Shown: positions 4,011-19,574 of the stretch, piece by piece
Position numbering within the stretch: position 1 is the first letter of the stretch
Layout: each line of letters starts with the position of its first letter
NCBI RefSeq assembly: GCF_002075285.3
Contig: NZ_CP021983.2
Coordinates: 1,830,001-1,862,000 of the forward strand
From: Halomicronema hongdechloris C2206
Lineage (GTDB): Bacteria > Cyanobacteriota > Cyanobacteriia > Phormidesmidales > Phormidesmidaceae
Direction of reading: 5' to 3'
Length of the DNA: 32,000 bases
Program-made: the position numbers and the translations under genes
Notes under the pieces: generated by a model
The model's input: the letters and a program-made list of their open reading frames with translations, nothing else
Databases searched by the model: none
What the model was told of the DNA's origin: nothing

Positions 4011-4491
4011 AACGGATGCTTACCCTATGATTTCCCTCACCCCCATCCCTTGGCTTGAGAGCTTGGGTCGATTGCTGCTCGCTATCGGGTTGGGGGCAGC
4101 CATTGGTTGGGATCGCGAGTATGACAATAAACCGGCTGGGCTGCGCACCAACATGCTGGTGAGTTTAGGGGCGGCTCTATTCATCCTGGTTCCCCTACAA
4201 AGTGGGCTGGCGCAGCAAGATGCCAATACTATCGCCCGTAGCCTCGATGGCATTATCACCGGCGTGGGGTTTGTGGGGGCAGGCTCGATTCTACGGGAGC
4301 AACGGGTGCGGGGGCTCACCTCTGCCGCTGCCATCTGGATTTCGGCGGCGGTGGGGGTGGCAGCAGGGATGGGGCTGTGGCCATTGAGCCTGATGGGCAC
4401 CCTGTTGGCCATTATCATCCTGCGCATTATCAAGTGGTTGGAACGGCGATTATCCCCTAGGAAACGGACATCTAGGGCGCCAAGGCAGTAG
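4003..4491 (+). CDS. mgtC: MgtC/SapB family membrane protein
   Basis: 162-aa ORF with the family-typical N-terminus LLLAIGLGAAIGWDREYDNKPAGLRTNMLVSLGAALF and 4-5 hydrophobic helices. The start may be the Met at 4027. Confidence 0.85.
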   Translation: MLKTDAYPMISLTPIPWLESLGRLLLAIGLGAAIGWDREYDNKPAGLRTNMLVSLGAALFILVPLQSGLAQQDANTIARSLDGIITGVGFVGAGSILREQRVRGLTSAAAIWISAAVGVAAGMGLWPLSLMGTLLAIIILRIIKWLERRLSPRKRTSRAPRQ

Positions 4492-4694
4492 TAATAGGGC
4501 GGCTTGCCCTGACGGATGTGGCAAAAACCTAAAGAGATCTAGCAAAAATTTGGATTTAACGGCGGACTAGTCCACCATGGGGAATCGACGCTGGTCGGGA
4601 AAATATCCCGTCCTATGTTGGCATGGACATTCTCAATGGCTCGTGCGAGAGGAGTGTCCGTGATGAGTGCCCAGTAGCATCCCAGGAGAAATTT

Positions 4695-5246
4695 ATGTTG
4701 ACGGCGGCCGACATCATGACTAACGAGGTCTGCACCATCGATAGTTCAGCCAGTGTGGCGGATGCCATTGCACTGATGCAAACCCAGAAGGTGCGATCGC
4801 TAATCGTGAACCGCCGCAGCGCCGAAATGCCCTTCGGTATCGTCACCGAACGCGACATCGTCTACAAGGTGATTGCTCGGGACCACGATCCGGAGCGGGT
4901 GATTGTACAGGACGTGATGCGGCAGCCCTGTGTGGCCATTGAACCGAATCTGAGTATTCAAGAAATCGCTCAAGTCTTTTCAGATGCTGGGATTCAGCGG
5001 GCTCCGGTGATCAAAGATGGGGAATTGCTGGGGGTGGTCTCGGTCACCGATGTGGTCATGCGGGGAACGATAGCGGCGTCGAATCAGCCCGAGCTGGCCC
5101 AGCGGATCGCCGAAGCCGTGCGCCATGCCCGGTCCATCTGTCAGGAGAAAGGACAAAGTTCCCAGGACTGTGCGATCGCATGGGAAACCGTAGAAGAACT
5201 ACAAGCAGAAGCCGCCCATCGCCGGATTAAGCCCGGGGGGAGATAG
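4695..5246 (+). CDS. CBS-domain pair fused to a C-terminal CP12 domain (CBS-CP12)
   Basis: There are two CBS-like repeats (IMTNEVCTID...; VMRQPCVAIE...GIQRAPVIKDGELLGVVSVTDV). The C-terminus CQEKGQSSQDCAIAWETVEELQAEAAH carries the CP12 Cys pair and the AWxxVEEL core. AGGAGA lies at 4685-4690, just upstream of ATG 4695. The ORF track starts earlier, at 4623. Confidence 0.8.
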   Translation: MLTAADIMTNEVCTIDSSASVADAIALMQTQKVRSLIVNRRSAEMPFGIVTERDIVYKVIARDHDPERVIVQDVMRQPCVAIEPNLSIQEIAQVFSDAGIQRAPVIKDGELLGVVSVTDVVMRGTIAASNQPELAQRIAEAVRHARSICQEKGQSSQDCAIAWETVEELQAEAAHRRIKPGGR

Positions 5247-8553: not shown

Positions 8554-9138
8554 TTAGTCGCGTTGAATTTTGTGAAACATCTCCTCAACCGTCAATTGCC
8601 ATTGGGAAAACGTCGGTGAAACAACCGTGTCATCTTGATTAAATACGGTTTCCGTATACGTGCCCTCAACCATTGCCAACACTGTCACGCGACCTTCTTG
8701 AGGATCAACAATCCAATATTCCGGGATGCCTCGCCATTCGTACTGATTGCGCTTGTCAAAATAGTCGCGGCGGCGGCTTTCCGCTCCGGAGCTGACCACT
8801 TCCACCACCAGCAGTGGTGGAGCCATCTCCAACGTAATTGCAGACTGCCCCAGGGCTTGTAATTGCTCTAGGTGCTCTGGTCGCAGCACGGTGAGATCCG
8901 GAAAGCGATTCTTGGGCTGTCCCAGCACTTCAAGGGCAAGCTGATGCGTTCTGACCCGTTGAAATCCAACAATGTCTGAAAAGGCGCGATCGAGCGCACG
9001 CGAGATTAAGACATTCTCATCCGATTCCGGCGGCACCTCGATTAAATCCCCATAAGTCAGCTCATACCGTCTATCTGTCCCGTCATCGTAGGCGAGATAG
9101 TCAGCAAACGTCACAATTTTCAGGTTGGCTTGAGTCAA
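8554..9138 (-). CDS. Uma2 (DUF820) family restriction-endonuclease-like protein
   Basis: 194 aa with the motifs PDLTVL..., LLVVEVVSSG and DYFDKRNQYEWRGIPEYWIVDP, which are typical of the Uma2 PD-(D/E)XK-like family. Confidence 0.85.
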   Translation of the reverse strand: MTQANLKIVTFADYLAYDDGTDRRYELTYGDLIEVPPESDENVLISRALDRAFSDIVGFQRVRTHQLALEVLGQPKNRFPDLTVLRPEHLEQLQALGQSAITLEMAPPLLVVEVVSSGAESRRRDYFDKRNQYEWRGIPEYWIVDPQEGRVTVLAMVEGTYTETVFNQDDTVVSPTFSQWQLTVEEMFHKIQRD

Positions 9139-9720: not shown

Positions 9721-10374
9721 CTAAAGATTTTCCACGGCATCGGCATAACTATACACTTCGATTCCCAATGCCGCTGCTACAGGCAAGGCGCGATCGTCCA
9801 CCATGGGTGAAATCACTAGCTTGCGGCTAACGGGTCGTTGGTGGTGCTTTTGATAAAAGGTCGTCTTGCGATCGCAGGTATACATATCTGCCTTACTCAG
9901 GGAGGACTTGATCTCACAAATAAGCACGTCTCCGTTTTTGATAATGATGTCTAACTCCACCTGATCGGGCCGACCAAATACCTCGCCTGTATCGTCAAAA
10001 TCGTTAATATTCAACACCTGCACCCCGAAGGACTCTTCTAGGATGCCCTTAAGGGCATTACGGAAACTTGCTTCAGAATAGAGCCCCCAGCGGGAACCCA
10101 ACGCCCCGATGGTACTGTCATGACGCTGATCATGACGCTTCAACTCTGCTAAGACGTCTCGATTATGCTGGTGTTGTTCATGCCACTGGCGCGTGTTGTC
10201 TTCTCTATCGCGCTGCAGTTCTGCTAAGACACGGTCAAACCGGCTTTCGGTGTCGACTTTGCCAGCATAGTAGTCAGACACTGTCCTCAGCACAAAATCC
10301 CTGATGGCTGGATCGTTGGCGATCAAGTCGGGGAGGATGTCTTGCAGGGTCTGTTTCAGCTCGGCACTGGCCAT
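9721..10374 (-). CDS. DUF3782-type protein with a C-terminal PD-(D/E)XK-like nuclease core
   Basis: 217 aa. The N-terminus is helical and charged. The C-terminus reads RPDQVELDIIIKNGDVLICEIKSS, a D...E-x-K arrangement. Confidence 0.75.
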   Translation of the reverse strand: MASAELKQTLQDILPDLIANDPAIRDFVLRTVSDYYAGKVDTESRFDRVLAELQRDREDNTRQWHEQHQHNRDVLAELKRHDQRHDSTIGALGSRWGLYSEASFRNALKGILEESFGVQVLNINDFDDTGEVFGRPDQVELDIIIKNGDVLICEIKSSLSKADMYTCDRKTTFYQKHHQRPVSRKLVISPMVDDRALPVAAALGIEVYSYADAVENL

Positions 10375-10460: not shown

Positions 10461-11147
10461 CTACCCATCGTCAGGGTCAACACTGAGGGCTCTCAGCCGT
10501 TCGGCCAATCGGGCCGAGCGTTGGCGCTCCTGGTGCAACAGTTCTGCCTGGGTCGGCAGTAGATCGCCCGTAGCCGTGACCCACCGCAGCCAAACGGCAT
10601 CCACAGTCTGGTAGCAGCCTTGCCAACGCACTAATCCTAAGCCCAGCTGTTGGCTGGCAAGGACTCCAGCGTCATTGAGGGTTAAAGGCTCGTAGTAGCC
10701 ACCTACCAGGCGAAACCCGGCCCATTCTTGCGGATTAAATGGATCAAACCAGAAATACTCAGGTACTCTTACTTGCTCGGCATACACCTGCTTTTTCCTG
10801 GTTTTATCATCGACAGCTGTGCTGTCTGATAGGAGCTCGATGACAACGTCTGGGCCTTTGCCCTCTTCCCACACCACCCAGCTTTTGCGTTCTCCTTTGG
10901 GAACGCCTAGGACCACGAATACATCCGGTCCGATGAAATCCTGATGACGAACTTGGGCCAGGCTGTAGTAGAGAAACATGTTGCCGCCTACGTACCCATC
11001 CTGTCGCCCGGCTAACCAAGGGTATAGGGTCTCAATCAGGAGATCCGATTGCAGCTTATGGCGTTGGGTCTCCATGGGGACACCGTCGTCGCAGGGGAGG
11101 TCATGCTGAGTGGGGGGGAGGGCGCTATCGAGGGGATGGCTGACCAT
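10461..11147 (-). CDS. Uma2 (DUF820) family endonuclease-like protein with a C-terminal coiled tail
   Basis: 228 aa with GPDVFVVLGV, PDVVIELLSDST and KKQVYAEQVRVPEYFWFDP. The C-terminus LPTQAELLHQERQRSARLAERLRALSVDP is a common tail in cyanobacterial Uma2 proteins. Confidence 0.85.
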   Translation of the reverse strand: MVSHPLDSALPPTQHDLPCDDGVPMETQRHKLQSDLLIETLYPWLAGRQDGYVGGNMFLYYSLAQVRHQDFIGPDVFVVLGVPKGERKSWVVWEEGKGPDVVIELLSDSTAVDDKTRKKQVYAEQVRVPEYFWFDPFNPQEWAGFRLVGGYYEPLTLNDAGVLASQQLGLGLVRWQGCYQTVDAVWLRWVTATGDLLPTQAELLHQERQRSARLAERLRALSVDPDDG

Positions 11148-11779: not shown

Positions 11780-12343
11780 ATGGTACAGGCACCATCTAAA
11801 CTACTGACTTTAGCAGAGTTCTTACGCTTACCAGAGACGAAACCCGCAAGTGAATACATCGATGGTCAAATTGTTCAAAAACCGATGCCCCAAGGGAAAC
11901 ATAGTGCGATTCAGGGGGAGCTTGTCGCTGCTATCAATGGGGTCGTTAAATCTAAGCGTATTGCTCGTACATTTCCTGAGCTGCGCTGTACCTTTGGTGA
12001 TCGTTCAATTGTCCCTGACATTGTAGTGTTTCTCTGGAACCGAATTCCTCGTGATGAAAATGGGGAGGTTGCCAACACGTTTCCTGCTACGCCAGATTGG
12101 ACAATTGAAATCCTATCTCCTGATCAAAGCCAGACAAAGGTAACGAAGAATATTCTTCACTGTCTGCGGCATGGAACCCAAATGGGTTGGTTAATCGATC
12201 CGGATGAGAAAACCGTGTTCGTCTACCGTCCAAAACAGGAACCTGACGTATTGGATCAACCAGATGAAGTTATTCCTGTCCCGTCGTTTGCAATTGATTT
12301 ACAGCTTACAATCGAAGACTTGTTTGCTTTTTTGTTGGAGTAA
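11780..12343 (+). CDS. Uma2 (DUF820) family endonuclease-like protein
   Basis: 187 aa with VPDIVVF, PDWTIEILSPDQSQTKVTKNILHCLRHGTQMGWLIDPDEKTVFVY. Confidence 0.85.
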   Translation: MVQAPSKLLTLAEFLRLPETKPASEYIDGQIVQKPMPQGKHSAIQGELVAAINGVVKSKRIARTFPELRCTFGDRSIVPDIVVFLWNRIPRDENGEVANTFPATPDWTIEILSPDQSQTKVTKNILHCLRHGTQMGWLIDPDEKTVFVYRPKQEPDVLDQPDEVIPVPSFAIDLQLTIEDLFAFLLE

Positions 12344-12741
12344 GACTTGAGATGAAGCCAACTGTCCAGCTTCCACATGAGTGAAACCGTCTACGATGAG
12401 ATTTTAGAGGAAATCTACAGGATTCGAGAGGAACATGCAAAAGTATTCAATTATGATTTGAAGGCTATAGCAATCACAGTTGAATTTCGAACAGCATCCC
12501 ATAGACTATAGGCTTTGTAAGTGATTCTCATTCTAAATTCAGTTAGGCTTGCTATATTTGTGATGACTTGCAGAAACGACAAGCAGCAAGCGGTAGAAAA
12601 ATCATTTCTAAACCTCTTCGCCAGCCTCGCCAGCCGCATAATCGGGATTCGTGAGAATTCGGGAGCATCTCAGTCTTGCAAGTTTGCCCTCTCCCCCTCA
12701 GTTCCCCTCTCCCATTTTTGCACCTAGGAAAACATTTATCT

Positions 12742-12863
12742 GTCATTCCCACGGCTCACGGAGTGTGCCCGGAGGGCGTAGCGGGAATCCAGGGCGTAAA
12801 TCTCAGCTAGGCCCAAAGCGCTCTACCTGGATTCCGGGTCGCGCTGCGCTTGCCCGGAATGAC
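12742..12863. repeat. MITE-like nested palindromic element
   Basis: Outer inverted repeat GTCATTCC (12742-12749) / GGAATGAC (12856-12863). Inner 10-bp inverted repeat GGAATCCAGG (12784-12793) / CCTGGATTCC (12827-12836). The adjacent 29 nt (12722-12750) recur inverted at 19383-19411. Confidence 0.5.
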
Positions 12864-13040: not shown

Positions 13041-13277
13041 CTAAGACTGAGTTATGGTCTTAGCGTTATGAAAAGGCGCAATAGCAAATTTAACCCCAAA
13101 CGCAGAATGCTGAAGGTTGAAGAATGTGATTTGCTGTATCAATAAAGCCTGAGTCGCATAATACATTGCATAGTGAGCACGAGAAACACAGGCTCGATAG
13201 CGCTTATTTTCTGAAAGCAATTGAGACGTTTCTAAATCCTCTCCAGCCAGATTCAGAAGTCGAGAAACGCTACTCAT
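13041..13277 (-). CDS. HEPN-domain protein (toxin partner of MNT), apparently C-terminally short
   Basis: MSSVSRLLNLAGEDLETSQLLSENKRYRACVSRAHYAMYYATQALL matches the first HEPN helices. Its ATG (13277-13275) overlaps the MNT stop as ATGA. It has only ~78 codons, against the ~120-135 usual for this family. Confidence 0.65.
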   Translation of the reverse strand: MSSVSRLLNLAGEDLETSQLLSENKRYRACVSRAHYAMYYATQALLIQQITFFNLQHSAFGVKFAIAPFHNAKTITQS

Positions 13278-13681
13278 ACTAAGATGCCTTCTCGACGGAC
13301 ATTCCAAAGTAGTGGAGAATTACGATAAAGAAAATCATTATGAGCTATTGGCATCACGGAAATCAGTTCATCATAGTCAAGCAATATAGCTAAACCAGCA
13401 TCCGCCATGCGAAAAATTTCATCACCGTGGGAAATCGTTTCATCTCTGAGCACCACCAACACATCTACATCTGATTCCTCAGTTTCCTCATGACGAGCAA
13501 CCGAACCATACAGCACTAAACTGGCTAACCGCTTGCCATAGAGTGCAGTCAGCTTCTGCTTAAATTCCCGTAAAAGCTGCTTAATTTTAGGATTGAGAGT
13601 ATCAGCGTCCTCAATGGTCGGAAGGTCACTTACTTGACAATCGGTAGCCTGGTCCGTGGGCTGATGATTTGAAGCAACCAT
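13274..13681 (-). CDS. Minimal nucleotidyltransferase (MNT) antitoxin-type protein
   Basis: 135 aa with the nucleotidyltransferase signature LYGSVARHEETEESDVDVLVVL. It is translationally coupled to the HEPN ORF. Confidence 0.85.
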   Translation of the reverse strand: MVASNHQPTDQATDCQVSDLPTIEDADTLNPKIKQLLREFKQKLTALYGKRLASLVLYGSVARHEETEESDVDVLVVLRDETISHGDEIFRMADAGLAILLDYDELISVMPIAHNDFLYRNSPLLWNVRREGILV

Positions 13682-13805: not shown

Positions 13806-13947
13806 GTTCAAGACGACCCAGTGCCTGTTTAAACAAGGCTGGCTTTGTTTAAAGACGAAGCAGTTCCTGTTGAAGACGAACTTATTGCTGTGGTTTTTGA
13901 AATTCCCTCGTTACTGGGGAGATGGCCTGATGGAGCGTTGGGCTGTA
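13806..13947 (+). repeat. Copy A of a dispersed repeat element (1.5 units of the 42-bp motif plus a ~95-nt tail), interrupted by IS630
   Basis: It aligns by eye with 20419-20460 plus 20587-20687. The last 8 nt of the element (GATGCGAT) resume at 15059-15066, after the IS. Confidence 0.6.
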
Positions 13948-15056
13948 AACCTCGTCCAACTTGAGACCTGGAGTTTTAGGCGAACCCAAGGTAGGGTAGA
14001 GACCTGTCCAAGATTCGTTCGCATTCATCATAGCGCTTGCTGGCGATTTATGAAATTGCCCAAGGCGACAGTGCGACTCAAGTGGCCTACCAGAGTCACC
14101 GGAACCCGCAAACGGTGATGGAGTGGGTACATCGCTATAACGCTCACGGCCCTGATGCCTTGACCTACCAGCGCAGTGGAGGTCATCCCCCCCTTTGTCG
14201 GATGAGGTCAAGCGCGGCATAGACCAAACCCTTCGGCATGCGTTGGACGTAGCAGCCACGCCCCCTCAGCAGCGCAGCGAGGAACCGGTTCCCCGCTGGA
14301 CCCTCAAACGCCTCGTGCGGTGGGTGAAAGAGACCTTTGCCATCGACTGCAGTCGAGAGACCTTGCGAAAACTCCTCAAGGAATTAGGCTTTTCCTGGAA
14401 GAAGGCTCGAAAACTGTTGAATAAAGCAAATCCAGAGCAGCGAGTGGCTTTTCTCAAAACGTTGGAGAAGCTATTAGACGACGCCCTGCATGAGCGCTGT
14501 TTGGTGGTGTATCTGGATGAGGCGCATGTCCATCTCGACACCGATGAAGGCTATGGCTGGTCCATTTGCGGTCAGCGGTTCTGGGTTTCTTCCAGTTCCC
14601 TGGCTTAGCGAAGGTCTCCTTTTATGGACTGTATCTCTACAACCTGGGGCAGGTTCGGATTTGGCCCTTCGAGCGGGCGAAACAGGAGAACACCGTCGAG
14701 GTGCTCAAACGATTGCGGGTAGAGTTTCCCGATGTCCCCATTAAACTGGTCTGGGATGGGGCTCCCTATCATCGGGCCAAACTCGTGCGAGAGGCGGCTC
14801 AAACCTTGGACATCGGGCTTGTGCGGTTGTCAGCCTACAGTCCTGATTTTATGCCCGTCGAGCATCTGTGGCACTGGTTGCGGGAGGACGTCACCTATCA
14901 CACGTGTTATGACCAAGAAGCCGATTTAATCGCCCAGGTTGATCGCTTTCAAGCACGGATTAATGCCGACCCGATTGCCCTCGCTGATCGCTTGTGGGTC
15001 AAATCTCATCTGGATCCTAAGGAGGAAAAACTCCGGGTTTCAACCTAGATGAGGTT
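13948..15056 (+). mobile_element. IS630-family insertion sequence (~1.1 kb) with TA target duplication
   Basis: The 30-nt terminal inverted repeats AACCTCGTCCAACTTGAGACCTGGAGTTTT (13948-13977) and the reverse complement of 15027-15056 (AACCTCATCTAGGTTGAAACCCGGAGTTTT) match at 24/30. TA flanks both ends (13946-13947, 15057-15058). A paralogous uninterrupted site ...GGCTGTAGATGCGAT lies at 20681-20695. Confidence 0.85.
13960..15048 (+). pseudogene. IS630/Tc1-mariner-type DDE transposase, disrupted
   Basis: The HTH part reads LLAIYEIAQGDSATQVAYQSHRNPQTVMEWVHRYNAHGPDAL. The DDE triad context is YLDEAHVHLD..., VWDGAPYHRA..., PDFMPVEHLWHWLRE. Reading requires frame changes near ~14032, at the C-run 14187-14193 and near ~14595. 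No clean start codon lies inside the element. Confidence 0.8.
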
Positions 15057-15252
15057 TAGATGCGATAGCCCTGCGGGGACTTCCTGTACGAATACGGTAC
15101 TCATTGTCAGAACCTTTCATCTTGACCACCCCATCAGGGCGTGGATCTTCGGCAAGTTGCTCAATCTTCTTAGCGATGCGATTGTAAACGTCATCAGGCA
15201 AAGCATCTAGCTGTTTTTGCACAGCTTTCGGTGTGATGATGGTGTAGGTCAT
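15040..15252 (-). pseudogene. RelE/ParE-family toxin, C-terminally truncated by the repeat element and IS630
   Basis: MTYTIITPKAVQKQLDALPDDVYNRIAKKIEQLAEDPRPDGVVKMKGSDNEYRIRTG is a typical RelE/ParE N-terminal two-thirds. The last ~9 codons (from ~15066 down) are read out of the inserted repeat element and the IS630 end. Confidence 0.7.
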
Positions 15253-15488
15253 GCCGATCGCTCTGCCCGTTTTGCCTTGTATTCATCAAAGGTCATGTAA
15301 TCCCCTGCTTCGTAGTCAGCACGGGCAGCCTGAATTTCAGCAATGTCCTCGGTCGAATCTTCATCATCGGGGAATAACTCGGCTTCTAGAAGTTCCCAAA
15401 GCTGATGTTTTTCAGCAATGTCTAGTGAGGAAATTGCTTGCAGCAATGATTGAAATGAGATGTCTACTTTCACAATATTCTCAGCCAT
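15249..15488 (-). CDS. Putative antitoxin of the relE/parE-like module
   Basis: 79-aa acidic protein (DDEDSTEDIAEIQAARADYEAGDYMTFDEYKAKR). Its stop overlaps the relE-like ATG as ATGA (15249-15252). Confidence 0.6.
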   Translation of the reverse strand: MAENIVKVDISFQSLLQAISSLDIAEKHQLWELLEAELFPDDEDSTEDIAEIQAARADYEAGDYMTFDEYKAKRAERSA

Positions 15489-15630
15489 TAGAACTTGCCT
15501 CTGTTTTTATTTTTGCATCGTGTATTTTCAATTGCTCCTGTGCCCATTCTCGCAGTTGCTCATCGAAGTCATAAGCCGCTTTGTTGCGCAGCGGTTTGAT
15601 CGTTTTGGGGGGAAGCATGATTTTAATCAT
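15481..15630 (-). CDS. 49-codon ORF, likely a relic of a NACHT-family gene 3' end
   Basis: Hand translation gives MIKIMLPPKTIKPLRNKAAYDFDEQLREWAQEQLKIHDAKIKTEASSNG*. The stretch DEQLREWAQEQLK is identical to the NACHT protein tail. Its ATG overlaps the vapC stop (ATGA), and its stop overlaps the antitoxin ATG (ATGGCTGA). It falls below the ORF-track length cutoff. Confidence 0.4.
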   Translation of the reverse strand: MIKIMLPPKTIKPLRNKAAYDFDEQLREWAQEQLKIHDAKIKTEASSNG

Positions 15631-16040
15631 GGTTGCAACCAGTTTTGAATTTGCAATTCAGGAATTCGTTGAAAATGACTGAGGTTATTGGTGATTACAC
15701 ATAATCCTTGAGCCAAAGCAGTAGAAGCGATTAGGATGTCTGCATCTCCAATCAGTTCACCTCGCTGTCTCAAAAGTGCGTAGATGTCAGAAGCTTTGAT
15801 AATGATTTCATCAGTCAGCAGCAAAATGATATTCACCTCACAGAAGAGATCGAATGCCGCAAGCTGTTTTGTTGCACCTTTTGCTTTTAGTCCACGCAGA
15901 ATCTCATATCGAGTAATGATCGAGAAAGTGAACTGTTCATGAGCGACCAAGTACTCCTGAGCTTTCGGAATCACAACTGGATCCTGGCGCAGGATAGCAG
16001 AGAGAATATCCGTATCCAGAAGTGCAGGTAAAACGGTCAT
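15627..16040 (-). CDS. vapC: PIN-domain ribonuclease toxin VapC
   Basis: 137 aa. LLDTDILS at the N-terminus carries the first acidic PIN residue, GDADILIASTALAQGLCVITNNLSHF the distal ones. There is an ATGA overlap with the upstream antitoxin. Confidence 0.9.
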   Translation of the reverse strand: MTVLPALLDTDILSAILRQDPVVIPKAQEYLVAHEQFTFSIITRYEILRGLKAKGATKQLAAFDLFCEVNIILLLTDEIIIKASDIYALLRQRGELIGDADILIASTALAQGLCVITNNLSHFQRIPELQIQNWLQP

Positions 16041-16276
16041 TGAATCAGTGAATCCTCAAAGAAACTTTGACGCTCTAAAGCAATTTGCTCAACGTCTTGA
16101 ATCTGCTCAGCAGAAAACCCTTCATAAACTTCAGCCGCCAACTGAAGCATTTGCTCTGGTCTTATTTTGGTTTGCGATTTAACAATCAACTGAACTTCCT
16201 GTCCTTCAGATAACTCTGGTACTTTTAATGGACGAAAGATCCCATTCTCATAAACTGCTTCTACAATCTGTTGCAT
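16037..16276 (-). CDS. vapB: VapB-type antitoxin (AF2212/DUF104-like)
   Basis: 79 aa starting MQQIVEAVYENGIFRPLKVPELSEGQEVQLIV, the hallmark N-terminus of this small antitoxin family. It starts 1 nt after the NACHT stop codon. Confidence 0.8.
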   Translation of the reverse strand: MQQIVEAVYENGIFRPLKVPELSEGQEVQLIVKSQTKIRPEQMLQLAAEVYEGFSAEQIQDVEQIALERQSFFEDSLIQ

Positions 16277-16277
16277 A

Positions 16278-18935
16278 TTATTCGACCTCCATTTCTAATT
16301 TTTCATTTTGCATTTTTAATTGCTCCTGTGCCCATTCTCGTAGTTGCTCATCGGGATCGTTGATGACGCGATCGCGCAGCAATTCAAAAGTTTTGGGATG
16401 GATGGAATAATGCTCAAGGAGAGCACGTAGAGCAATTTTACGAGGATTAATCGTTAGTGTCTCTGTGTCAGATTGAAAGGGATCTTCTACTGTAAGATCG
16501 CACAAAAGCTTGAAGATTTCAGGGTTTTCTACACAGCTTTGGATTAATTCTTCTAGTGCAGCTCGTCGAATCAGAGAATCTCTATTATCTTTAGAATGTT
16601 TTTTTAGGATGCATACTGCTTCTGAGAAATTAGAAAAGTATTGCCCTATAATTCGTAGAGCCGAAGTTTTAACTAGTGATTCGTGATCTCGCGTAACAAA
16701 TTCATCTAGCCAGAGCAAGCTATCCTTAGGATCTTTCTGCATTTTCACTATTCTGTCTATTGCTCTTAGTTGGAATTCAATTATAGATACCCAGTAATCT
16801 CCTGGGACTAAACTATATTGAGCTAGTTCTTTGAGGGATTTAATAATGTCTGATTCCGCATCTTTGTAGATGCATCTGTTTCTCGATTCGAGGAAGCAGT
16901 CAGCAGCAAGAATAACACTTAGAAATGAATACTCTTCTTGCCTGTAAGTTTGCCCCAATAGGAAATTTATAGCTTGAACTGCAAAATCGCTACTAATCAT
17001 TAAAATTATAAGTCTTAAAGTTTCATGCCAGGTTTCATCTTGCCAGTGTTGACCGAATATATCATCGCGTAGTTGTTCAAAGGTGAGGGTGTGCTGTTTC
17101 TCGAAGCGATGAACAATTTCAACCGCACAAAAATATTCTAAAAAGGTGCGGTGCATGAAGCCGTAGGTGTCGACTCCGCGATAGCAGAGGATGAAGTTAC
17201 GTTCGCGCAGTTGTTGAATCAGCCGATTGGCTTTTTCGCGGGGTTCACTGAAACCCTGATCGCGCAAATATTTGGTCAAAATGTGGGTGAGGCGATCGCT
17301 ACTAATCAAATTACCCTTCAGCCCCTCTTCCCCTGCCTGCATCTCATAGGCAATCAGGCGCAACATCTCTTGTTTCTCCCGCCGCCCGATCGCATCCATC
17401 GGAATCTGCAATCGCTTGTGATCCACATCCCAGTGGTAGAGCAACACCCGCGCAGCCTGGTCATAGAGGTCGGCGCGATCGCGGGGTAACTCCTGCCGTC
17501 GATTCAGAATTGCCATCATCGTCAGCAGTAGTGGATTGTCTGCCAGGTTGGAGATCGCTTTGGAATTGGCGATCGCATCTTTCAATCGCTGTTTTAGCCG
17601 CACTTTATCGGGATCGCTGCCCATTGATAAGTCATACCAGCGATCGATAAACTCGTGAATCTCGTCGGTATCGAGGGATTGAATTGTGAAGTGACGAAAA
17701 CTGCTGTGCTGAAGGCGATCGGGGTTGTAACCAATGATGCGAGATGTGACCAGCACCTGAGCTTTGGGATATTGCTGGGAAAAGCGAATAATATCGTCAA
17801 TGACGGTCGATTGGGTGGCGCGATCGAACACCTCATCCAGACCATCAAACATCACCAGGGTAGGAGACTCCAGTAAATACTGATGCAGTTGATGTTGATC
17901 AAACTGCCAATCTACACCCCGACCTTGATGGAGAAATTCGAGAAAGTTCGCAGATGGATTGATGGCGAATTCCCGCAACTCAATCAATAACGGTAGTTTC
18001 TCTGTCTTGCCTTCGACCCATTCCAGTGCTAGGTATTGCAGCAGACTCGACTTACCCGATCCTGGATCTCCTAAAATCACCGTCCGTTGCGAATCTGCTA
18101 CCGCTTCTAAAACCTTTCGTGCGGGTTGCTGAAAGTACTCGTGACGATAACGCTCTAAGGCTTCAGGCGATAAATCTGCTGCAAGTTGTCCTTCGGCTTG
18201 CAATTGTCGTTTCAAGTCCAGAGGCAGGTCGTAGCGCATTGGGGGCAAGGCTTCTCGCACCGTTTGCTCAATGAACATTGCCCAGAGCTTGATGGCATCA
18301 ACGCGATCGGTGCTGTCAAGGGTGTATAGCTTCAGATAGCCATAGCTGGACTGCAAACTGGCTCGATAAGTCTCAACATCAAAGCCGGGTGAGAGTTGCG
18401 CGGTATTGCGGGCAATGTCTTCTAGTAGATCGGTTTCAAGCAGCGATCGCAACTCTGGATTCGCTTTAACAATGCCCTTGACCTCATACACATATTCCTT
18501 GCAAATGCCCCGCCAATCAAACTCTTCTAAAGGAAATTGCCATCCAGAAACTTGATATTGTTGTGCCCAGATTTGCTCTAACTGCCCGTAATCAATTTGC
18601 TTACAATCCTTCTCAAAAGCTTTTCCCAGAATGGGGCGCACCGCCTTATCCTGCACAAACTTCTTGATTACTGCTTTGTAGTGATGCTGAATACTGGTTT
18701 CGGGAACGTCGTTAATCTGAAGCTCTTTAATAAATCGCTTGATAAAGTAGCCAACTGCTTCTGCCATCGGTGTTTTCAGTGCTGTGGCATTGAGTCGGCT
18801 GACTCCACTACTCAGGCAATCTTTAAAGAAATCTTGAACATACCCCTCAAGAACAGGCTTACTCAAATCGAGAACCTGCTCTAGCACTAGCTTGCCTAGC
18901 TCTATTCCTGTTGTGGCTGCCACCCATTCCAGCAT
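16278..18935 (-). CDS. NACHT/STAND P-loop NTPase with an unassigned ~285-aa N-terminal domain and a C-terminal HEAT/ARM-like repeat region
   Basis: 885 aa with Walker A ILGDPGSGKSSLLQYLAL and Walker B LVMFDGLDEV, followed by VLVTSR. The C-terminal third is helical-repeat-like (RRAALEELIQ..., ALRALLEHY...). Confidence 0.85.
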   Translation of the reverse strand: MLEWVAATTGIELGKLVLEQVLDLSKPVLEGYVQDFFKDCLSSGVSRLNATALKTPMAEAVGYFIKRFIKELQINDVPETSIQHHYKAVIKKFVQDKAVRPILGKAFEKDCKQIDYGQLEQIWAQQYQVSGWQFPLEEFDWRGICKEYVYEVKGIVKANPELRSLLETDLLEDIARNTAQLSPGFDVETYRASLQSSYGYLKLYTLDSTDRVDAIKLWAMFIEQTVREALPPMRYDLPLDLKRQLQAEGQLAADLSPEALERYRHEYFQQPARKVLEAVADSQRTVILGDPGSGKSSLLQYLALEWVEGKTEKLPLLIELREFAINPSANFLEFLHQGRGVDWQFDQHQLHQYLLESPTLVMFDGLDEVFDRATQSTVIDDIIRFSQQYPKAQVLVTSRIIGYNPDRLQHSSFRHFTIQSLDTDEIHEFIDRWYDLSMGSDPDKVRLKQRLKDAIANSKAISNLADNPLLLTMMAILNRRQELPRDRADLYDQAARVLLYHWDVDHKRLQIPMDAIGRREKQEMLRLIAYEMQAGEEGLKGNLISSDRLTHILTKYLRDQGFSEPREKANRLIQQLRERNFILCYRGVDTYGFMHRTFLEYFCAVEIVHRFEKQHTLTFEQLRDDIFGQHWQDETWHETLRLIILMISSDFAVQAINFLLGQTYRQEEYSFLSVILAADCFLESRNRCIYKDAESDIIKSLKELAQYSLVPGDYWVSIIEFQLRAIDRIVKMQKDPKDSLLWLDEFVTRDHESLVKTSALRIIGQYFSNFSEAVCILKKHSKDNRDSLIRRAALEELIQSCVENPEIFKLLCDLTVEDPFQSDTETLTINPRKIALRALLEHYSIHPKTFELLRDRVINDPDEQLREWAQEQLKMQNEKLEMEVE

Positions 18936-19280: not shown

Positions 19281-19574
19281 GGACTGGATGTATCGAGGCT
19301 TCTGGTAACCCGCGCAGGCGGGTTTTGCGTCTGTAGCTGCGGTTTTAACCGCCAAGCTAAACAGTTTTGTCAGTCAAGCAGGGAATGACAGATAACTGTT
19401 TTCCTAGGTTGATTAACCGGATTTCCTATCAATTGTTATGGATCGCGCTTCATTGGCAAGGCGTGATAGACCTCGCTAAGACCGCACTTAGTTTTCTGAG
19501 CCGGAGAGGTCGCCCGGGGAAATTTCGCTTTCCCCGGACCCCTACGACCAGGGCAAACCGTTGCCCTGGACCCT
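19281..19574. mobile_element. ~294-bp MITE-like insertion relative to the paralogous intergenic region at 11236
   Basis: It is absent from the otherwise collinear copy (11148-11310). It is bounded by GGACTGGAT (19281) and GGACGGGAT (19575), against a single TGACGGGAT at 11236. Internal hairpins include CCAGGGCAA-ACCG-TTGCCCTGG and the GGGAATGAC/TTTTGTCAGTCAA motifs shared with 12722-12750 and 13008-13024. Confidence 0.45.

Follow-up and report, generated by a model that had tools for sequence, protein, structure and literature searches.

An NNH2-NACHT-HEAT NTPase gene in the cyanobacterium Halomicronema hongdechloris C2206 heads a tightly packed chain of toxin-antitoxin (TA) genes, and the organization of this chain, here and in related genomes, is the subject of this analysis. 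All coordinates are positions within the window, the 32,000-nucleotide stretch of contig NZ_CP021983.2 that was analyzed. On the minus strand, the chain comprises the NNH2-NACHT-HEAT gene (16278–18935; 885 amino acids, assigned from its open reading frame (ORF) and Pfam matches), the antitoxin gene vapB (16037–16276; 79 amino acids, AF2212-like, Pfam PF01954, E 7e-13), the PIN-domain toxin gene vapC (15627–16040; 137 amino acids, Pfam PIN, E 3.4e-10), a 49-codon ORF (15481–15630), an antitoxin-like gene termed AT2 (15249–15488; 79 amino acids, belonging to no Pfam family) and a ParE/RelE-family toxin ORF (15040–15252). The NACHT stop codon TAA (16280–16278) lies 1 nucleotide from the vapB ATG (16276), vapB and vapC overlap as ATGA, the ATG of the 49-codon ORF overlaps the vapC stop, the stop of the 49-codon ORF overlaps the AT2 start (ATGGCTGA, 15481–15488), and AT2 and the toxin ORF again overlap as ATGA. 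The coordinates of all six ORFs and all five junctions agree with those of an earlier annotation made from the letters alone (the sequence-only reading). A scan for promoters and terminators gave counts no higher than expected from shuffled sequence, with no terminator-like site on the minus strand from NACHT to relE, and a search of Rfam returned no match inside the array.

The NACHT protein, which has the same sequence (100% identity) as a Halomicronema hongdechloris C2206 protein, contains an NNH2 domain (PF22734, residues 25–207, E 1.6e-58; approximately 18315–18863, minus strand) followed by a NACHT P-loop module (PF05729, residues 284–434, E 3.3e-13, 50.2 bits against a cut-off of 26.7; approximately 17634–18086, minus strand) in whose translation Walker A (GDPGSGKS) and Walker B (DGLDE) motifs can be read. 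The C-terminal HEAT_2 match is weak, at 26.7 bits slightly below its cut-off of 27.7. The protein thus combines the NTPase module, N-terminal domain and C-terminal repeats of bacterial NACHT proteins related to nucleotide-binding leucine-rich repeat (NLR) receptors. It does not group with the Avs proteins, as no Avs1–5 model is among its PADLOC matches and Foldseek finds no effector fold. NNH2 is one of the "NACHT N-terminal helical" domains, a class defined by Kibby et al. (10.1101/2022.07.19.500537). The sequence-only reading had described the N-terminal ~285 residues as lacking an effector motif, and this holds in that no effector fold is detected there by Pfam, PADLOC, a PDB sequence search or Foldseek against PDB and BFVD; the region is, however, already catalogued as NNH2. 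Its AlphaFold2 model is all-alpha with a mean predicted local distance difference test score of 70, and a Foldseek search with this model finds no neighbor in PDB (best E 0.93) or BFVD (best E 1.1). A known effector in this domain was considered and rejected on the empty PDB sequence search together with Foldseek.

The family to which this protein belongs is large, with 2714 proteins at E ≤ 1e-20 among 8000 candidates scored. PF22734 is present in 120 of the 120 homologues listed, whether or not TA genes lie downstream. Across 50 sampled homologues, NNH2 and NACHT are the best conserved part (70–95% identity), and the HEAT region is hypervariable, its last repeat alone being conserved. In the window, the hypervariable HEAT region spans approximately 16450–17018 (minus strand), where a blastn alignment with locus L002 fails while both flanks align, at 89% and 83% identity; the HEAT regions of L027 and L060 are likewise unalignable between flanks that are 86% and 97% identical. 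This pattern suggests either replacement of the HEAT sensor region or its very fast, NLR-style diversification.

The conserved last HEAT repeat, here called R, is the feature around which the array appears to be organized. The terminal copy of R (HPKTFELLRDRVINDPDEQLREWAQEQL) occupies 16317–16400 (minus strand), as matched by a hidden Markov model (HMM) of R, and contains the core NDPDEQLREWAQEQL; it is followed by a variable NACHT C-terminal tail (KMQNEKLEMEVE, 16281–16316, minus strand) that includes the ribosome-binding site of vapB, GGAGG. A second copy lies within the 49-codon ORF. At the nucleotide level, a 68-nucleotide direct repeat of 85% identity connects 15498–15565 with 16286–16353, 788 nucleotides apart, and the protein similarity between the 49-codon ORF and the NACHT C-terminus spans PKT...DEQLREWAQEQLK, as also found by tblastn and by the R HMM (match at 15529–15609). 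The first half of the ORF is degenerated and the core is kept, and its last codons (SSNG*) are the tail of the next cassette. The 49-codon ORF is therefore a diverged relic of the last HEAT repeat of NACHT, rather than an independent gene family. Its ATGGCTGA junction with AT2 is identical to the junction between NACHT and AT2 in L005 and L058, and to that in a relic in L160.

Orphan copies of R are not confined to the window. Of 67 non-redundant loci, about 19 have such copies downstream of the NACHT stop according to the R HMM; they lie between cassettes, and a locus may hold as many as three. An orphan copy usually begins 3–21 nucleotides past the stop of the preceding toxin gene, and its frame ends near the start of the next antitoxin gene. 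Some relics carry frameshifts or stop codons (L016, L018, L080), and the core is preserved even where the first half is frameshifted; a supposed class of "half-length" relics proved to consist of full-length R with indels in the first half. Identity between an orphan and the terminal copy of its own locus ranges from 92–96% (L043, L045) through 79% (the window) to 46–58% (L046), and in L046 and the window the orphan is no closer to its own terminal copy than to foreign copies. This spread would fit homology-driven exchange with occasional gene conversion and decay. In L160, positions 4377–4740 of a 6.3-Mb contig hold an R relic ORF fused to AT2 via ATGGCTGA and followed by a truncated toxin, standing alone, with no NACHT gene within 4.5 kb upstream. 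An R-plus-cassette unit can thus exist away from NACHT. Selection on R to act as leader ORF or promoter of the antitoxin gene behind it would be a reasonable explanation for the preserved core and for the left edge shared by relics, and the position of the L160 relic ORF, in front of AT2 and far from any NACHT gene, points in that direction too. The relics of the window and L160 have a CATGAT..ATCATG palindrome at their left end, which was considered as a possible site and rejected, since it aligns with ordinary LINY-type NACHT codons in L005 and L058. The R-D-R-A codons of R often spell the cyanobacterial HIP1 palindrome GCGATCGC (e.g., L001, L003, L006).

The adjacency of NACHT and TA genes, for which the sequence-only reading proposed a search of related genomes, recurs in dozens of them. 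A genome scan, one per species, yielded 77 NACHT loci (these and further loci are cited by L numbers), nearly all from filamentous cyanobacteria. By tblastn, homologues of vapB and vapC (59–88% identity) lie directly after NACHT in six loci (L002, L014, L026, L046, L049, L060), and AT2/RelE homologues (52–91% identity) do so in L004, L005, L015, L018, L036, L041, L043, L057 and L058. For a wider census, the small ORFs of the 3-kb flanks of NACHT were clustered. In the 179 kb of downstream and 160 kb of upstream DNA searched, 122 TA-family matches fell downstream, all on the NACHT strand, versus 2 upstream (binomial P 2.5e-31), and at least three more TA-like singletons seen upstream by eye leave this picture unchanged. 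Among the 59 loci for which 1.5 kb or more of sequence follows NACHT, 38 have type II TA genes directly downstream on the same strand, and the other 21 have no TA gene downstream. In 32 of 41 loci, the first TA gene begins between −9 and +65 nucleotides relative to the NACHT stop, and a single locus carries up to six TA-family genes. Recurrent small-protein families occur nearly only downstream, the few upstream clusters coming mostly from the syntenic pair L040/L071. Because the upstream flanks share no common genes except in one syntenic pair, the NACHT-TA unit has been kept together across genomic contexts.

The TA genes found at this position belong, by Pfam and NCBIfam, to about ten or more families. 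They include VapBC, ParE/RelE, HigB, RelE with RelN-type antitoxins, YafQ/ParE-like toxins, HicB, UPF0175 with DUF3368, and other PIN types, together with partner proteins of no family. An ~80-amino-acid protein that usually follows HigB forms a cluster in 21 loci, versus 9 for HigB (e.g., L016, L030, L043, L009, L002), and in L016, L030 and L043 it stands directly behind NACHT with no toxin gene before it; antitoxin-only remnants seem common. The idea that this ~80-amino-acid family (C0a) is the N-terminal half of HigA was dropped when a PDB profile search gave no significant match. The sequence-only reading had allowed that the adjacency might have been created only by a cassette insertion in this genome, which its recurrence behind NACHT homologues elsewhere contradicts, and had been aware of no described NACHT-VapBC coupled system, which literature and full-text searches bear out, as they found no description of NACHT-TA arrays. 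The adjacency is therefore recurrent and no one-off accident, and the architecture is apparently undescribed.

Comparison of alignable loci locates the joint between NACHT and its cassettes at R. The 10–15 residues behind the core change together with the cassette that comes first downstream: a tail of the form "...QQMExQGGxSxWT*" goes with a PIN-like gene and a 70-amino-acid gene, "...KLKMEESSNG*" with AT2/RelE, and "EELVKLEGER*" with a RelB-like gene, a 65-amino-acid gene and a PIN gene. Judged by this covariation, the tail of the window NACHT is to be regarded as evolutionarily part of the vapBC cassette. Collinearity of the window with its closest NACHT gene, in L078 (89% amino acid and 88% nucleotide identity), extends from 19015 to 16318, where the core ends; past this point, the tail and cassettes of L078 are unrelated to those of the window. 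Between L027 and L060, 97% identity holds across the 3ʹ end of NACHT, the first cassette and the core of an orphan R; beyond that core the two loci carry different cassettes, and homology returns about 370 nucleotides on. L041 and L080 share a module consisting of the 70-amino-acid gene plus R (C1-plus-R) at 94% identity between unrelated flanks. The window segment 15087–16400, which runs from R through vapB, vapC, the R relic and AT2 to relE, recurs in L080 over 1315 nucleotides at 84% identity. The shared block starts at window 16400; in L080, it is preceded by a further cassette and by a NACHT gene whose alignment reaches just 73% over 956 nucleotides. The fraction of identical codons between the window and L080 is correspondingly 0.75 for vapC (n = 120) and 0.54 for NACHT (n = 354). 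L081 and L082 have the opposite order, AT2-RelE preceding vapBC. As traced through these loci, cassettes have evidently been added, displaced and reordered by recombination within R, leaving R relics between them. Since the breakpoint comparisons reveal shuffled modules, the window chain is not the product of a single local insertion. Recombination has also occurred inside cassettes, because the antitoxin of L028, a 99-amino-acid ORF 11 nucleotides past the NACHT stop, is chimeric, its N-terminal half resembling RelN-like antitoxins and its C-terminal half the HigB-partner family.

The two TA pairs of the window differ in their state. Among VapC ribonucleases of solved structure, the window VapC has matches that include the tRNA(fMet)-specific group (E 2.8e-13 to 1e-6), and its acidic residues D9, D11, E46, D99 and D101 are invariant in the family alignment. 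A PIN toxin with these residues and a small overlapping upstream antitoxin gene make this a VapBC-type type II TA locus, and the window vapC appears intact. As in the tRNA(fMet)-cleaving group, the toxin shows VapC structure matches and PIN acidic residues, and its upstream antitoxin gene overlaps it as ATGA; unlike in that group, the window antitoxin is AF2212-like, and the pair, from a cyanobacterial subclade, has no upstream intergenic region of its own, starting 1 nucleotide past the NACHT stop. vapB homologues stand directly behind NACHT or R in the six loci listed above and in L080–L082. The window vapBC family is nevertheless widespread, mostly free-standing and independent of NACHT: at least 465 metagenome stretches, counted among the first 600 that match the pattern, encode a relative, and among the best 80 metagenomic VapC relatives, NACHT or R precedes vapBC only in the 3 closest.

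The sequence-only reading counted two TA pairs in the chain, and the ORFs of both pairs are indeed present, but the second toxin is a stump. By tblastn, it matches an 86-amino-acid full-length homologue over residues 1–60 only (15073–15252, minus strand), and the remaining 26 residues are found nowhere in the window when the full-length homologue is used as query. The Pfam ParE_toxin match of the fragment is correspondingly weak (E 0.005), compared with E 4.8e-12 for the full-length homologue of L005; the window thus lacks a full-length ParE/RelE-fold toxin here. With only residues 1–60 of 86 kept and the rest absent from the window, the second pair is evidently toxin-dead. The toxin ORF runs into an IS630-type insertion sequence (IS), and its terminal part is junk read from the IS end. 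In other loci, AT2 is always followed by a ParE_toxin gene. The AT2 family has 231 members in a database of 5.8 billion proteins, all given source names being cyanobacterial, and a NACHT gene is absent from 4 of 4 long-contig AT2-ParE loci sampled.

In the reading that these comparisons make probable, though well short of certain, a modular array of TA cassettes is docked to, and shuffled at, the conserved 3ʹ end (the last ~100 bases) of an NLR-like gene. R, through its core, would serve as the docking and crossover point for interchangeable type II TA cassettes. Each cassette would consist of a short specific tail plus TA genes, the tail becoming the last 10–15 codons either of NACHT or of an R relic and supplying the ribosome-binding site of the antitoxin gene. 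In the window, this would have produced vapBC, an R relic and AT2 with a ParE/RelE toxin that was later truncated, beside the IS630-type element. The recombination would be homologous rather than site-specific, and the array would be co-transcribed and translationally chained with NACHT. R relics may persist partly as leader ORFs for the next antitoxin, and the cassettes may be generic addiction or abortive-infection modules that stabilize, and perhaps back up, the NLR-like locus. NNH2 is likelier to be the output module of the NACHT protein than a variable downstream toxin is, because it belongs to the most conserved part of the protein and is constant with or without TA genes.

Several observations weigh against this reading or complicate it. 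Synonymous divergence of cassette and NACHT is similar for most locus pairs, which suggests that the association is largely old and co-inherited with episodic swaps, and which is also compatible with a functional partnership; recent invasion by mobile cassettes was rejected for the same reason, as cassettes and NACHT have similar fractions of identical codons in most pairs. Discordance that points to exchange is limited to some pairs, namely the window versus L080 and, for RelE, the window versus L041. The left edge of the relic falls within 3–21 nucleotides of the toxin stop for several unrelated TA families. As simple homologous recombination would not create such an edge de novo, its uniformity may point to a mechanism of greater precision, or to R being under selection in a leader or promoter role. 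The protein sequence of orphan cores is also well conserved, beyond what would be expected of pure scars. Finally, a role of the NACHT family in defense is presumed, the matches of the NACHT protein to PADLOC PDC-S60 (E 3.5e-7) and to NCBIfam EruA (47.9 bits against a cut-off of 1000) both being sub-threshold.

The principal functional alternative, anticipated by the suggestion in the sequence-only reading that the effector role is delegated to the PIN toxin, is a dedicated two-part defense system, in which an effector-less NACHT sensor, once activated, would set free or switch on the toxin translated with it (VapC in the window), for instance through sequestration or destabilization of the antitoxin. 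The recurrent linkage and the missing effector fold in NNH2 speak for delegation, as do the maintenance of adjacency in different genomic contexts, the tight same-strand packing with overlaps, and the similar divergence of cassette and NACHT in most pairs. However, about ten or more unrelated TA families are exchanged at the same position, across which a specific protein-protein mechanism would be hard to conserve, and this argues against a NACHT-VapBC system in particular. Toxins are, moreover, often truncated where NACHT is intact (the window relE; partial vapC matches in L002 and L060), and the most conserved region of the protein is NNH2 itself. With interchangeable cassettes, a third of the loci (21 of 59) having none, and vapBC relatives mostly free of NACHT, VapC is unlikely to be a dedicated effector, and the two-part system as a whole is considered unlikely. 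The other alternatives concern how the array arose. Sharp crossovers at the core end, the consistent left boundary of R relics beside different TA families and the stand-alone R-AT2 unit of L160 would all suit a site-specific, integron-like process, in which an unidentified recombinase acts on a site in R to insert and excise circular TA cassettes. Yet third codon positions of the R core show no conservation beyond the gene-wide baseline, so that a DNA-level recombinase site in R is unsupported; the sole recombinase-type gene among the ORFs scanned in the window between 5.4 and 22.5 kb is the IS630 transposase; and no recurrent large gene family accompanies the arrays. The identity of orphan R to its own terminal copy, from 46% to 96%, fits homology-dependent exchange and decay instead, and a site-specific origin is regarded as quite improbable.

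The R copies could also be passive relics, that is, eroded tandem NACHT paralogues each with its own TA genes, the latter piling up in a variable island for reasons unrelated to NACHT. The window island does hold an MNT/HEPN pair and an IS besides three Uma2 genes and a PD-(D/E)XK gene; frameshifts or stop codons interrupt some relics (as in L016, L018 and L080); and TA "islands" are generally known (PMC2701414). Random erosion, however, would leave relics of many lengths, whereas they start within a few codons of one point; the strand-specific downstream excess of TA matches (122 versus 2) is unlike the scatter of an island; and breakpoints coincide with the R core in independent pairs. The chance that passive accumulation explains the arrays is accordingly put as low as that of the integron-like process. 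A bolder form of the preferred reading, cassette exchange at R, can be entertained only tentatively: the last HEAT repeat would be a portable joint for a shared TA pool, forming an integron-like array chained to expression of the sensor, with the toxins as plug-in effectors or a "dead-man-switch" triggered when NACHT expression or the antitoxins are disturbed, and with the relics as leader ORFs or promoters. If true, this would define a new class of modular NLR-TA defense locus with its own cassette-exchange mechanism.

Chromosomal integrons, with their small, often promoter-poor cassettes in one orientation, a repeated element between them and a fixed platform upstream, frequently carry TA genes as cargo, and these TA cassettes are thought to stabilize the array. 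The NACHT-TA arrays resemble them in polarity and packing but lack the defining intI, attI and attC: no integrase gene is present among the window ORFs scanned (5.4–22.5 kb; the whole genome was not searched), and no attC-like structured site was identified. The repeat is, moreover, a protein-coding HEAT repeat without extra conservation at the DNA level.

The logic of the array is closest to C-terminal displacement in Rhs and contact-dependent inhibition (CDI) systems and to effector displacement in type VI secretion systems (T6SSs). In Rhs/CdiA arrays with orphan toxin-immunity modules (PMC3150448), a conserved 3ʹ coding segment of a large gene is repeated before each downstream module, new modules displace older ones, which are left as orphans, and recombination between repeats swaps modules. 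The NACHT-TA arrays likewise show a repeated 3ʹ segment before orphan modules, with orphan R copies and breakpoints at the core. In Rhs/CDI systems, however, the gene swaps its own toxic C-terminal domain together with an immunity gene, and the toxins are secreted or contact-dependent, whereas NACHT exchanges only a 10–15-residue tail, and the toxins are separate intracellular type II TA genes; no exchange of a toxin domain with its immunity gene is seen. In Vibrio cholerae, sequentially displaced T6SS effector-immunity modules (PMC5361080) similarly amass downstream of a conserved locus through recombination at a conserved upstream segment. The anchor in that case is a secretion-system locus at which mostly immunity genes are kept, in contrast to the NLR-like anchor and whole TA pairs here. 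The island of toxin-antitoxin systems (TAS island) described by Makarova, Wolf and Koonin in 2009 (PMC2701414) also consists of closely spaced TA pairs of different classes, and the window has VapBC, AT2/ParE and MNT/HEPN within 3.3 kb. TAS islands are ascribed there either to one site being favored for incorporation or to the transfer of cassettes that hold several TA pairs (PMC2701414); that work names no anchor gene, joint repeat or link to signal transduction ATPases with numerous domains (STAND) or NLRs.

Among NACHT proteins themselves, the bacterial NACHT (bNACHT) proteins of Kibby et al. (10.1101/2022.07.19.500537) share the N-terminal domain, the NACHT NTPase module and C-terminal repeats as presumed sensor. 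Cyanobacteria carry many bNACHT paralogues, and the bNACHT genes tested were only rarely in operons, those being poorly conserved (10.1101/2022.07.19.500537). The NNH2-HEAT loci differ in that a TA array is attached in about two-thirds of them; this clade also differs in matching no PADLOC or NCBIfam defense model above threshold.

The usual view takes bacterial NLR-related proteins to be systems of one gene each and TA modules to be selfish or abortive-infection elements that roam freely. In this family, which numbers thousands of members in filamentous cyanobacteria, the two are physically coupled in about two-thirds of the loci examined here, by a joint situated within the coding sequence of the NLR-like gene itself. 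If the coupling is functional, it would provide a testable model in which an NLR without an enzymatic effector uses, or is guarded by, exchangeable toxins. If it is only evolutionary, it would represent a new route of TA spread, in which the conserved end of a multi-copy host gene serves as a homology handle, and it would extend the Rhs/CDI logic of C-terminal displacement to intracellular immunity genes. For annotation, short ORFs such as the 49-codon one are to be taken as relics of the upstream gene rather than new genes.

The remaining features of the window lie on either side of this chain. The IS630-type element (13946–15058, plus strand), with which the array ends, is bounded by 32-nucleotide inverted repeats at 13946–13977 and 15027–15058 and matches Pfam HTH_33 and DDE_3. 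Its transposase (14037–15048, plus strand) is split over three overlapping ORFs, with a helix-turn-helix (HTH), HTH_33 and DDE_3 match, respectively, and is either frameshifted or uses programmed frameshifting. Beyond the IS, on the minus strand, lie an MNT nucleotidyltransferase gene (13274–13681; Pfam NTP_transf_2) and a short HEPN ORF (13041–13307; Pfam HEPN), assigned by PADLOC to PDC-S09; the MNT gene (within 13041–13681) has a strong PDC-S09 match (E 3.9e-35). The HEPN ORF behind it, of 88 amino acids, covers the first 48 of 117 profile positions, and its toxin is probably truncated too. The arrays of L020 and L075 likewise include MNT-type genes, and the MNT/HEPN pair of the window may be one more cassette of its array that the IS now separates from the others.

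A 29-nucleotide inverted repeat with one mismatch (12722–12750 and 19381–19409) brackets the block formed by MNT/HEPN, IS630, the TA genes and NACHT. Zero copies are expected by chance, and it is absent from all 159 other loci fetched; its two arms could delimit an island or be a small repeat element present twice in opposite orientation. Upstream of NACHT, a palindrome at 19306–19329 (minus strand) matches Rfam CRISPR-DR28 at 34.5 bits (gathering score 35; E 0.002), as a lone element with no array. The neighborhood is a variable island, with Uma2 (PD-(D/E)XK) genes at 8554–9138, 10461–11147 and 11780–12343, a DUF3782/PDDEXK_10 gene at 9721–10374, and a sugar-modification cluster (DegT, PglD-like) from 20729.

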